IMG/VR virus record: IMGVR_UViG_3300047557_002530
Length of the DNA: 64,000 bases
Strand: one strand, 5' to 3'
DNA from: a virus
Taxonomy: Duplodnaviria > Caudoviricetes
Shown: piece by piece, positions 147 to 53,486 of the stretch
Layout of the letters: each line of letters begins with the position of its first letter
How positions within the stretch are numbered: the first letter of the stretch is position 1
Translations under genes and position numbers: made by a program
The notes under the pieces: generated by a model
What the model saw: the letters and a program-made list of their open reading frames with translations, nothing else
What the model was told of the DNA's origin: nothing
Databases searched by the model: none

Positions 147-836
147 ATGAGAGTAGATCTTCATAACTTTTTTCAATATTATGATCCAAAGAATCCTAAG
201 CACGTTGCAGCAGTTGAGCAACTAGAAGTAGATCTTAAGGATTCTCCACTTCTTGACGATAGTTCTAATTGGGTCAAAATTTACAGGACAAAACCAACTG
301 TTCCTGGTGTTCTATCTGTTCCTTTTTATCCACAGACAGATAATTACAGAGATGCGCAAAGAACTTGCAATTCATCTGCTTGTGCTATGTGCTTAGAGTA
401 TTTCAAACCAGGCACTCTCCAAGGAGCAAAGGGCGATGATGCCTACGTTCGAAAAGTTTTTGCGATTGGTGATTCAACTGATCACACCGTCCAGACAAAA
501 GTTTTGGAAGGTTATGGAATTAAGTCACGCTTTAGTTACAATTTATCTTTTTCTGATCTTGATCGTGAGTTATCTGCTGGGAGACCTGTCGTTATTGGTA
601 TCTTGCACCGCGGCTCTTTATCTAATCCTACTGGTGGGCACATGGTTGTAGTGATTGGTAAGAGAGGTGAGGATTATGTTGTGAATGATCCCTATGGTTC
701 TCTCAATGATGGTTACACTGGACCTGTAACAAATGGTAAGGGTGCAGTCTATAAGAAGTCTGATCTTACTTATCGTTGGTTAGAAAGAGGTAAAGATAAG
801 ACTGGTTGGGGTCGTATCTTTGACGCAAAAAAGTAG
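147..836 (+). CDS. C39-like cysteine peptidase (putative endolysin component)
   Basis: Cys motif QRTCNSSACAM, His motif GGHMVVVIG and VNDPYG, the usual C39-like catalytic set; adjacent to a lysozyme. Confidence 0.75.
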   Translation: MRVDLHNFFQYYDPKNPKHVAAVEQLEVDLKDSPLLDDSSNWVKIYRTKPTVPGVLSVPFYPQTDNYRDAQRTCNSSACAMCLEYFKPGTLQGAKGDDAYVRKVFAIGDSTDHTVQTKVLEGYGIKSRFSYNLSFSDLDRELSAGRPVVIGILHRGSLSNPTGGHMVVVIGKRGEDYVVNDPYGSLNDGYTGPVTNGKGAVYKKSDLTYRWLERGKDKTGWGRIFDAKK

Positions 837-883
837 AAACGCCAACTAACATTAATAATGCCAATGAAGTGCCGTTGGTTGGC
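827..883 (+). promoter_or_regulatory. Candidate -1 ribosomal frameshift signal (A AAA AAG plus 3' stem-loop)
   Basis: Heptamer 827-833 in phase just before the TAG; 7-nt spacer; stem gccaactaac (841-850) / gttggttggc (874-883); the -1 frame is open into the lysozyme ORF. Confidence 0.65.
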
Positions 884-2039: not shown

Positions 2040-2140
2040 CCGCTAACCGAGACCTATGGGTGTATAAAAACGTCTCTCATACCCACAGTGGAGGGTGCTG
2101 TGGGGAATAATCGTATCAGTTCGTCCCCCCGAACTTTTAA
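2040..2140 (+). ncRNA. Structured psbA 5' leader, PhotoRC-II-like RNA motif
   Basis: Complementary segments (gagac/gtctc, tatgggt/(a)taccca, ccacag/ctgtgg) directly upstream of a cyanophage psbA, where PhotoRC-II RNAs are known; boundaries approximate. Confidence 0.55.
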
Positions 2141-2157
2141 CTAACTCTCTTAAACAA

Positions 2158-3237
2158 ATGACTGCTACAATTTCACGTCAACAACAATCGAATACTTGGG
2201 AACAATTCTGCAACTGGGTTACTAGCACTGATAACCGTCTCTATGTAGGTTGGTTCGGAGTCCTGATGATTCCAACATTGCTCGCCGCAACAATCTGCTT
2301 CATCATCGCATTTGTCGGTGCTCCCCCTGTAGACATTGATGGAATCCGTGAACCAGTCGCTGGTTCTCTAATGTATGGAAACAACATCATCTCTGGTGCT
2401 GTTATTCCTTCGTCCAACGCGATTGGACTGCACTTCTACCCCATCTGGGAAGCTGCTTCACTTGATGAGTGGCTTTACAACGGCGGACCTTTCCAACTGG
2501 TAGTGTTCCACTTCCTCATCGGCATCTATGCTTATATGGGTCGTGAATGGGAACTCTCATACCGCCTAGGTATGCGTCCTTGGATCTGTGTTGCTTACTC
2601 TGCACCTGTTGCTGCTGCCAGCGCAGTGTTCCTAGTCTATCCTTTCGGTCAAGGTTCTTTCTCTGATGCAATGCCTCTGGGTATCTCTGGTACCTTCAAC
2701 TACATGCTTGTTTTCCAGGCAGAACATAACATCCTGATGCACCCCTTCCACATGCTTGGAGTTGCTGGTGTCTTCGGTGGTTCACTGTTCTCTGCAATGC
2801 ACGGTTCTCTAGTTACTTCCTCACTGGTTCGTGAAACCACCGAGCAAGAGTCGCAGAACTATGGTTACAAGTTCGGTCAAGAAGAAGAGACTTATAACAT
2901 CGTTGCAGCACACGGTTATTTCGGTCGCCTGATCTTCCAATATGCTTCCTTCAATAACTCTCGTTCGCTACACTTCTTCCTTGCTGCTTGGCCTGTTGTC
3001 GGTATCTGGTTCACTGCTCTTGGTGTTAGCACCATGGCCTTTAACTTAAATGGCTTTAATTTCAACCAGTCTCTGCTTGATAGTCAGGGTCGTGTAGTTA
3101 ACACCTGGGCTGATGTTCTTAACCGTGCTGGACTGGGAATGGAAGTGATGCACGAGAGAAATGCACATAACTTTCCTTTGGACCTGGCTGCTGCCGAAGC
3201 AACTCCTGTTGCTCTAACTGCACCTTCTATCGGTTGA
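2158..3237 (+). CDS. psbA: Photosystem II D1 protein
   Basis: Full-length D1 ([10 protein letters not shown]...HNFPLDLA plus C-terminal extension); no intron; real start at 2158, not 2095. Confidence 0.99.
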
Positions 3238-7330: not shown

Positions 7331-7607
7331 CTATTGGGTGGTGACAGACAAAACCACAGGTAGAGTAATCGCTCATTGCGGGGAAGAGAATGATGCATTG
7401 ATGTTAGTTGGATTTGATAAAGATAAAAGAAATTATCGTAAACAAAAGTTTATTCTGGATCAGGTCATTACAGTAACATCAACAACAGATAAACAACTTC
7501 CTGGTCAATTGGGTTTACCTGCAGCAAAAGAAGAACTTCCTCCTATGGATCTTCAACAACAAGTATGGTTGCCTGAGGGACAGGGAATTCCAGTTAACGC
7601 TAAATAA
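7323..7607 (+). CDS. Hypothetical protein
   Basis: 94-aa ORF in the operon chain. Confidence 0.65.
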   Translation: MYDYWVVTDKTTGRVIAHCGEENDALMLVGFDKDKRNYRKQKFILDQVITVTSTTDKQLPGQLGLPAAKEELPPMDLQQQVWLPEGQGIPVNAK

Positions 7608-7627
7608 CTTTCAGTTTTATAACAATT

Positions 7628-7864
7628 ATGAAATTTACAGTTTATTCAAAAGACGGTTGCCCATATTGCACAAAGGTTCAACAAGTGCTAGAGTTGGCAC
7701 AACTACAATACGTAGTCTACAAATTGAATACTGATTTTACTCGTGATGAGTTTTATGCTGAGTTTGGAGAAGGTTCTACCTTTCCTCAAGTAATTATTAA
7801 TGACAAACACATTGGTGGGTGTTCGGATACCGTTCAATATCTACAGGAGCAAAAATTAGTTTAA
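7628..7864 (+). CDS. Glutaredoxin (NrdC-like)
   Basis: CPYC active site; TFPQVIIND..IGG. Confidence 0.92.
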   Translation: MKFTVYSKDGCPYCTKVQQVLELAQLQYVVYKLNTDFTRDEFYAEFGEGSTFPQVIINDKHIGGCSDTVQYLQEQKLV

Positions 7865-8223
7865 TGAATACGAACATTCACGAAGTTTACAACGATGTAG
7901 AAAAAGCAATTGATTATGCATTCAATGGTCAGTTTGTTTTAAAATTTTATGACTATCTAAAAGTTCGTGGAACAAAAAAAGTAGAAGTCGAACAATTTAT
8001 TGAAAGTTCTACTGCTACTGAAATTAGTAATCTTGTAATGGATTTGGATGATTATCTTGAAGGTGGATCAGATGAGATTCATAAACAACTTCGCGAAGGA
8101 TACGGGCACATTCCAAAACCACAGGCAAGAAAAATAAGAAATTATCTATATGGTATTCTTGAAGATGCCTGGAGATATAATCATGATAAACGACCAGGAA
8201 GAAGAAAGAAGCAAACTAAATAA
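7864..8223 (+). CDS. Conserved cyanophage hypothetical protein
   Basis: ATG at 7864 overlaps the glutaredoxin stop. Confidence 0.7.
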   Translation: MNTNIHEVYNDVEKAIDYAFNGQFVLKFYDYLKVRGTKKVEVEQFIESSTATEISNLVMDLDDYLEGGSDEIHKQLREGYGHIPKPQARKIRNYLYGILEDAWRYNHDKRPGRRKKQTK

Positions 8224-8386
8224 GTCAGAACCCCAAATCAATAGGGGCGTTGAATTATTACTACGCAATAGGAGGAGATCATCTGCACCAAAGACTTTTC
8301 AAGTGAAGTTTGGTAAAATGATCTCTCTTTTTCGTAGGGAGTTTCATTTCTTTATAGAATTTAACTTTGATGTAAGAAAAAAATAA
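8150..8386 (+). CDS. Hypothetical protein (start uncertain)
   Basis: INRGVELLLRNRRR motif; position in operon. Confidence 0.5.
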   Translation: MVFLKMPGDIIMINDQEEERSKLNKSEPQINRGVELLLRNRRRSSAPKTFQVKFGKMISLFRREFHFFIEFNFDVRKK

Positions 8387-53163: not shown

Positions 53164-53295
53164 ACTGGTTGGCGGGTGGCCAATGTGAGCGGCAACACTA
53201 ATAATGGTTCGCTTGATGGTCCTTTCTACTTGAATCTGAATAATGATTCTTCCAATGCTAATACCAACATCAGCAGTCGTCTTTCTTGGGCGCCT
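53164..53295 (+). repeat. DGR template repeat (TR, 132 nt)
   Basis: 10 AAY codons; 30 adenines, none at third codon positions. Confidence 0.95.
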
Positions 53296-53486
53296 TGGTT
53301 TGAGTCTCAGTTGAGTTTCAGTTTACTTCAGTGAGTTTCCAGTGCTCTTTCACTTCTCTTCGGTTATAGCAAATCTTTAATCGCATTTAGACAAACCTTA
53401 CCACTCGGTAAAAATACACAGCAACGACAATAAGGATTAGTAAGTCTTTATGAATTTGAAAATCCTGTCACGACAGAGAAAATGTT

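Follow-up and report, generated by a model that had tools for sequence, protein, structure and literature searches.

A candidate −1 ribosomal frameshift conserved in cyanophages links a C39-like peptidase to a GH24 lysozyme in one lysin gene

We analyzed a 64,000-nucleotide stretch of viral DNA (the window) from record IMGVR_UViG_3300047557_002530, a 92-kb IMG/VR fragment from a freshwater metagenome with a completeness estimate of 43%. The window is of T4-like cyanophage origin and carries psbA at 2095-3237. Here, we propose that two overlapping open reading frames (ORFs) for a C39-like cysteine peptidase and a GH24 lysozyme are most likely a single lysin gene (147-1327) decoded in two ways, through a conserved −1 programmed ribosomal frameshift of the dnaX/IS3 type. 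The original prediction, made from this DNA alone, had suggested that such a frameshift joins the peptidase to the lysozyme, and the comparison with relatives supports it. The support comes from the signals at the site, their conservation and covariation, the start-less lysozymes of many relatives, purifying selection and the existence of in-frame homologues. The elements involved are the following.

147-836, + strand: 0-frame ORF of 229 amino acids (aa), a C39-like papain-fold cysteine peptidase (PF13529), the predicted short product, ending ...DAKK.
827-833, + strand: slippery heptamer A_AAA_AAG, in phase (from the sequence and 77 distinct junctions).
834-836, + strand: 0-frame stop TAG, abutting the 3' end of the heptamer (read directly).
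841-850, + strand: 5' arm GCCAACTAAC of the putative stimulatory hairpin, 7 nucleotides (nt) after the heptamer (from folding and relatives).
874-883, + strand: 3' arm GTTGGTTGGC of the putative hairpin; the −1 frame encodes ..LVG.. here, at the linker/lysozyme N terminus.
833-1327, + strand: −1 frame after the predicted slip, comprising a Thr/Pro/Asn-rich linker, the GH24 lysozyme (PF00959) and the stop; 164 aa.
869-871, + strand: GTG, from which a 152-aa lysozyme could start independently; not conserved.

Direct reading of positions 827-836 bore out the expected arrangement: the peptidase ORF ends GAC GCA AAA AAG TAG, which places A_AAA_AAG in the X_XXY_YYZ phase just before the stop. The −1 frame, held to be open from 824 and to be the lysozyme frame, is preceded by a TGA at 821-823, runs open over 824-1327 and reads ...KKVETPTNINNANEVPLVG into the lysozyme. 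A slip at this site would give exactly the junction peptide and the fusion of about 393 aa that had been anticipated (229 + 164 = 393 aa). The 10-bp stem 7 nt past the heptamer also exists as described, with 841-850 pairing with 874-883 through nine Watson-Crick pairs and one G-U pair, after a 7-nt spacer, at −13.7 kcal/mol.

Our model suggests that the majority of ribosomes would translate the peptidase and terminate at the TAG at 834, yielding the 229-aa product. Some ribosomes, with Lys-tRNAs on AAA and AAG, would be delayed by the abutting stop and by the hairpin, 7 nt past the heptamer, and the two tRNAs would slip back in tandem by one base on A_AAA_AAG. After this slip, the ribosome would read on in the −1 frame, translating a short linker and then the GH24 muramidase, to give a 393-aa two-domain lysin. 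The adjacent stop codon probably adds stimulation of its own, as "shifty stops" stimulate frameshifting. That the slippage occurs on the ribosome, and with what efficiency, is inferred here.

The signal of this one genome, taken alone, is not far above chance. In this AT-rich window (37% G+C), 7 of 271 stop-to-stop ORFs of at least 60 aa have a slippery heptamer in phase no more than two codons from the stop; two of the seven are AAAAAAG. These background ORFs include 53203-53391 (−), 8138-8386 (+) and 7579-7995 (−), with the heptamers AAAAAAG, AAAAAAA and TTTTTTT. A search of region 700-1000 against Rfam matched no frameshift family, even at E ≤ 10. Because one genome's signal lies near the chance level, the comparison with relatives is decisive, and it is on them that the significance rests.

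Searching IMG/VR with peptidase queries in three scans, and adding isolate genomes, yielded 175 loci that hold both domains in this order, and the non-fused loci collapse to 100 distinct junctions (three loci, L093, L118 and L121, were assigned by eye to the S-CAM7 and ACG-2014f types described below). In 77 of the 100, A_AAA_AAG is in phase and the lysozyme lies in the −1 frame. The −1 frame is open in every junction of this class, and the 0-frame stop abuts the heptamer in most of them, falling one codon later in the remainder. The terminal G of the heptamer is invariant (77/77). The codon that precedes it may be GCA, GTA, ACA, ATA or GAA (Ala, Val, Thr, Ile or Glu), with A always as its third base; the third positions of the neighbouring codons vary freely. 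Comparison of the junction across related phages, which the original prediction had put forward as a check, shows the heptamer, adjacent stop, frame and compensatory stem to be kept in these 77 distinct junctions.

Next to the heptamer, the class shares a downstream structure. RNA folding after the heptamer gave a stem of 8-16 bp starting 2-8 nt downstream in nearly all members, and the stem sequences are many and unrelated (for example CGCCAAC.., AGTTCTACTCC.., TCAACACCACA.., CCCACTAC.. and CCCCG..). Against shuffled sequences, the mean z was −4.14 for the heptamer class (n=77); it was −0.47 for the homologous stretch in plain in-frame fusions (n=12) and −0.82 for heptamer-less junctions (n=17). 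The distance between stem and protein anchors differs among junctions, and the stems are not homologous by position; for this reason we used anchor windows instead of one consensus of the 77 junctions, with the 5' and 3' windows of a partner-swap test fixed by the anchors and not by the fold. Pairing between a junction's own 5' and 3' windows reached −16.5 kcal/mol, against −8.75 ± 0.54 for permuted partners, and 0 of 5000 permutations reached the observed value. Column-wise pair counts were restricted to the window's own stem family (20 sequences), in which 89.8% of cells pair and four pairs have changes on both sides; in shifted registers the pairing was 12-50%. A downstream structure supported by covariation is found, then, both in the window and in the class.

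How the lysozyme would otherwise be translated was addressed by counting ATG, GTG and TTG codons from the −1-frame stop up to the conserved motif LIKEFEG. No such codon precedes the lysozyme domain in 40 of the 77 heptamer junctions, while the other 37 hold some ATG, GTG or TTG. By comparison, a start codon is present in all 17 of the −1-frame junctions that lack the heptamer. With few exceptions it is an ATG that overlaps the stop (ATGA), and in most of these junctions the lysozyme has an extra N-terminal segment of about 50 aa. ATGA-type downstream genes with this segment occur in loci L017, L022, L043, L045, L074-L082, L086, L139-L145 and others. They are scattered over the peptidase tree, with at least eight switches, which suggests repeated module exchange by recombination. 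Recoding very probably explains why the lysozyme genes of these phages so often have no start codon.

Two isolates illustrate this. In the model phage S-PM2, the peptidase ends GAT GCA AAA AAG TAA and the lysozyme lies in the −1 frame without a start codon; an independently resequenced genome, deposited as S-PM2d, has an identical junction. As the full GH24 domain has no start codon of its own, the S-PM2 lysozyme has been annotated as a 72-aa fragment, a "putative lysin" beginning at an internal ATG (L002, NC_006820, 2454-2672). In S-CAM7 and two IMG/VR relatives, the peptidase ends GTT TTT TTT CCA CAG TAG, so that an in-phase T_TTT_TTT stands two codons before the stop; a different hairpin follows (GTAGAACC/GGTTCTAC) and the lysozyme is again start-less. 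This type is an independent predicted solution to the same recoding. The S-CAM7 "lysin" is annotated as a 90-aa fragment from an internal ATG (L088, NC_031927, 2145-2417), and PHROG 10457, an "endolysin" family of 95 positions, appears to have been built from such lysozyme fragments.

These counts also bear on the alternative that the peptidase and the lysozyme are two separate genes. Here the lysozyme would initiate itself (at GTG 869 in the window, at near-cognate codons elsewhere), perhaps by termination at the TAG followed by restart; the hairpin would regulate that restart and the heptamer would merely be the Lys-Lys C terminus of the peptidase. In its favour, GTG 869 and TTG 875 are in frame and the 152-aa product would be a complete GH24 domain, the 37 junctions with a candidate start are compatible with it, and some relatives clearly use overlapping ATGA starts. 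We nevertheless consider two genes an unlikely arrangement, given that 40 distinct junctions offer no ATG, GTG or TTG at all and that, in the 20-sequence stem family closest to the window, the position of GTG 869 drifts among GTG, GTT, ATT and TTG. Since it is not conserved even within this family, GTG 869 would be at most an auxiliary route to the lysozyme. Three further observations speak against two genes: the third base before the heptamer is invariant despite the amino acid changes; S-CAM7 swapped the Lys-Lys heptamer for a Phe-Phe one and not for a start codon; and the hairpin is lost where a real ATG start exists. Members of the S-SRM01 subclade have gained an overlapping start of their own; their hairpins are weak or missing, and 2 of 5 have a changed heptamer.

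Several points weigh against a frameshift. Nucleotides 851-894 can fold differently, with about the same stability (−14.3 kcal/mol) as the 841-850/874-883 stem, and for this reason the probability of the stem in isolated RNA is only about 0.25. In the lysozyme frame the first common start is GTG 869 and the next TTG 875, and either could start a complete GH24 domain; cyanobacterial initiation often proceeds without a Shine-Dalgarno (SD) sequence. The SD-like GGGGT noted earlier as a possible stimulator is present at 808-812, ending 14 nt before the heptamer (the GGGG ends 15 nt upstream). Its presence stood up to scrutiny, but a stimulatory role cannot be told apart from coding constraint: the GGGG is forced by the codons for the conserved Trp-Gly of a GWGR motif and is found in plain, non-shifting fusions too, so we do not count it among the signals. 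There is no tRNA-Lys gene within the window; in E. coli, the host tRNA-Lys complement sets the slipperiness of A_AAA_AAG. Lastly, the run is A7 and not A6 in five contigs (two distinct junctions), and this puts the two domains in frame.

The A7 contigs are L147 (about 1686) and L150, L153, L154 and L156 (about 1686), and all retain the hairpin. The metagenome that gave L147 also yielded a contig with A6, and the A7 junctions are nested singly among A6 relatives in the peptidase tree. The A7 state is either a recent one-base insertion, occurring as natural polymorphism, or a homopolymer assembly error.

Such variants raise the question of whether the split itself is an artefact or a sign of decay, a fused gene having been broken by a homopolymer error or a recent frameshift mutation and the lysozyme left unexpressed. 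The existence of fused in-frame homologues, and of A7 variants one base different, would fit this idea, which we regard as very improbable. The evidence on the A-run consists of assembled contigs. The A6 run and the stop recur in many independent assemblies and in two separately deposited S-PM2 records, and a DNA metagenome contig from an unrelated study is gap-free across the slip site. Because the independent assemblies, the independent DNA contig and the resequenced S-PM2 share A6, an assembly indel is excluded for this run, and at the level of contigs the check on its length that had been proposed at the outset comes out in favour of the prediction. The A6 state is also ancestral to a 101-row clade of the peptidase tree, and the 120 best peptidase homologues in a collection of 5.8 billion proteins are all peptidase-only, at 226-237 aa. 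Decay of the lysozyme is contradicted by the 39 start-less lysozyme ORFs, which are intact, with a median ratio of nonsynonymous to synonymous substitution (dN/dS) of 0.20 at dS of about 1.3; these ORFs are under purifying selection.

Alternatively, the shift could be made during transcription, with RNA polymerase adding an A within A6 (or a T within the T8 of S-CAM7), so that some mRNAs encode the in-frame fusion. The shift sites are homopolymer runs, S-CAM7 has T8 and A7 contigs exist, yet we judge this explanation to be quite unlikely for the class. Efficient transcriptional slippage in bacteria takes place on runs of about 8-9 or more, and A6 is shorter; a homopolymer of that length is found only in the S-CAM7 type, for whose T8 site transcriptional slippage is more plausible. 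In the heptamer class the run is never lengthened and its terminal G is invariant. Moreover, a hairpin that covaries and starts 2-8 nt downstream marks frameshifting on the ribosome and not slippage of the polymerase, for which phase is irrelevant and no such structure is required. Metatranscriptome contigs at the site show no indel, which is weak evidence, the RNA contigs ending 10 nt past the heptamer or beginning after it.

The programmed ribosomal frameshift predicts a fusion protein, and natural counterparts of it exist. In a sister clade, both domains sit in a single plain in-frame fusion of 398-407 aa, and overall the in-frame counterparts of the predicted 393-aa protein measure 395-407 aa. 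PHROG 3617 (405 positions) spans both ORFs of the window end to end, and domain fusions in reverse order are found in S-CREM1 and S-CBS2. The original prediction had named plain in-frame fusions in relatives as evidence that would count against it. Such fusions do exist in the sister clade, yet they have neither heptamer nor hairpin. The fused protein is, as judged from these homologues, a natural and functional form, and the plain fusions do not show the split genes to be errors.

One in-frame fusion is of a different kind. ACG-2014f (L087, NC_026927, about 1900-1960) encodes a 405-aa fusion that carries GCA AAA AAG in phase, a GGAGGG/CCCTCC hairpin 6 nt past the heptamer and a TGA two codons into the −1 frame. 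This arrangement is suggestive only of a dnaX-like frameshift that would truncate the protein to nearly the same short product, as it is limited to one shallow clade and the −1 stop is present in plain fusions too.

The short C termini of the two directions are nearly alike (KK versus KKV). On this basis we raise, tentatively and with considerable doubt, the possibility that the lysin loci of Kyanoviridae have been selected for isoforms in a fixed ratio, the peptidase and the peptidase-muramidase, with one cassette used in both directions. The cassette may extend the protein in the types of the window, S-PM2 and S-CAM7 and truncate it in the ACG-2014f type, and the isoforms may co-assemble or act in sequence, timing lysis. 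Recoding would then do in these phages what internal start sites do for the endolysin isoforms of Gram-positive phages.

Next, we considered what the two domains do. The first ORF matches Pfam PF13529 (Peptidase_C39_2, E = 5e-12), positions 1-235 of PHROG 3617 and PHROG 10051, labelled "endolysin"; its Cys and His columns are nearly invariant, as in a papain-fold peptidase. A search of PDB sequences with the peptidase gave no meaningful match. The second ORF matches PF00959 (Phage_lysozyme, E = 3e-20) and the GH24 lysozymes 9kbq and 2anv of the PDB (E = 5e-15), and covers positions 247-405 of PHROG 3617; it is a complete GH24 domain in which EFEG, the motif with the catalytic Glu, is conserved. 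Modelled with AlphaFold (pLDDT 70, moderate confidence), a natural in-frame homologue has two domains and a disordered linker. By fold, its N-terminal half matches 3erv, staphopain and the pseudomurein endoisopeptidase PeiR, and its C-terminal half matches phage GH24 endolysins.

Upstream of the peptidase, two further elements can be read.

95-116, + strand: intrinsic-terminator-like hairpin (GCGTCC GAAA GGGCGC) followed by a T6 run (read directly from the sequence).
117-124, + strand: AATAAATA, a putative T4-type late-promoter-like motif directly after the T-run.

The terminator-like hairpin is predicted to close the upstream gene and to isolate the lysin transcription unit; a hairpin plus T-run recurs upstream of the peptidase gene in many relatives. 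The ATAAATA core of AATAAATA starts 29 nt before the peptidase ATG (147). Of 114 distinct upstream regions, 53 contain ATAAATA, for the most part 28-31 nt ahead of the peptidase start. The T4 late promoter is TATAAATA, with which we compared the motif of the window; the conserved ATAAATA about 29 nt upstream resembles it and would fit a role in lysis. From the domain families, the PHROG "endolysin" labels and this late-promoter-like motif, we infer that the peptidase cuts peptidoglycan and that the locus encodes a late lysis enzyme of the phage.

We then compared the lysin cassette with known systems. The tau/gamma site of E. coli dnaX has the same A_AAA_AAG with a stem-loop a few nt downstream, and likewise gives two products that share their N terminus. 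The two differ in that the shift predicted in the window would lengthen the protein and not truncate it, and that the gene encodes a phage cell-wall hydrolase; moreover, dnaX has an upstream SD stimulator, whereas the GGGG of the window cannot be separated from coding. It is the ACG-2014f type that has the dnaX topology, in which the 0 frame gives the long form and the −1 frame an immediate stop. In the orfA-orfB pairs of the IS3 family (IS911, IS150), A_AAA_AAG or a similar heptamer also lies near the end of the upstream ORF ahead of a hairpin, and the shift joins two ORFs into an active two-domain protein, with a shorter unshifted product. However, the window has no transposase and no sequence relation to these elements, and its 0-frame stop abuts the heptamer.

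Among phages, the G/GT tail assembly chaperone of lambda is a conserved −1 frameshift, giving a short and a long isoform in a set ratio, that was recognised, as here, mainly by comparative genomics; unlike the present case, it concerns a morphogenesis chaperone and not a lysin. The G/GT site is G_GGA_AAG and has no required hairpin. The two-isoform endolysins CD27L, CTP1L and Lys170 resemble the cassette in that one lysin gene gives a full-length protein and a shorter isoform. In those endolysins, the short form is the C-terminal binding domain and arises by in-frame internal initiation; in the window, by contrast, the short form would be the N-terminal peptidase and the mechanism would be recoding. 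Closest in composition are the in-frame C39-GH24 lysins of cyanophages (ACG-2014f gp211, PHROG 3617; in reverse order S-CREM1 and S-CBS2), which share the domains and the position of the linker, with peptidase identity of 60-70%. These are single ORFs, and the plain ones have neither heptamer nor hairpin.

The mechanism itself is known, from dnaX, the IS3 family and phage tail-chaperone cassettes. None of the isolate records that we examined annotates a joined coding sequence. A full-text search of the literature on frameshifting in cyanophage and S-PM2 lysins, which covered few subscription journals, found no description of this recoding. What sets the cassette apart is that it lies in a lysin gene, that it is common across a phage family of ecological importance, and that it comes with natural variants of the heptamer and the stem and with natural "off" states. 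Much of the carbon that picocyanobacteria fix in the sea and in fresh water is released through lysis by T4-like cyanophages, and the lysis genes of these phages are poorly defined.

If our model is correct, the lysin annotation would need correction in S-PM2 (72 aa), S-CAM7 (90 aa) and hundreds of metagenomic contigs, and a large conserved family would be added to the short list of −1 frameshift cassettes in bacteria and phages. The many stem variants, two heptamers and "off" states (plain fusions and ATG-coupled genes) would be useful for the study of frameshift efficiency. Translational recoding could then set the dose of the muramidase relative to the peptidase, offering a testable route to the control of lysis timing or of wall-cutting stoichiometry in cyanophages.

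The C39-like domain also occurs in another setting. In S-ShM2 (L092, NC_015281, 1-2919), S-SSM2 and S-RIM14 it lies inside a protein of about 1205 aa (T4-like GC 847; PHROG 10075), which may be a structural or virion-associated form. Downstream of the lysin gene, two small convergent ORFs, which might play a holin- or spanin-like part in lysis, abut the lysozyme stop of the window: 1324-1569 (−), of 81 aa with a hydrophobic N-terminal stretch, and 1566-1757 (−), of 63 aa. Neither matched a PHROG, and minus-strand ORFs of similar size occupy the same place in S-SRM01 and S-PM2.

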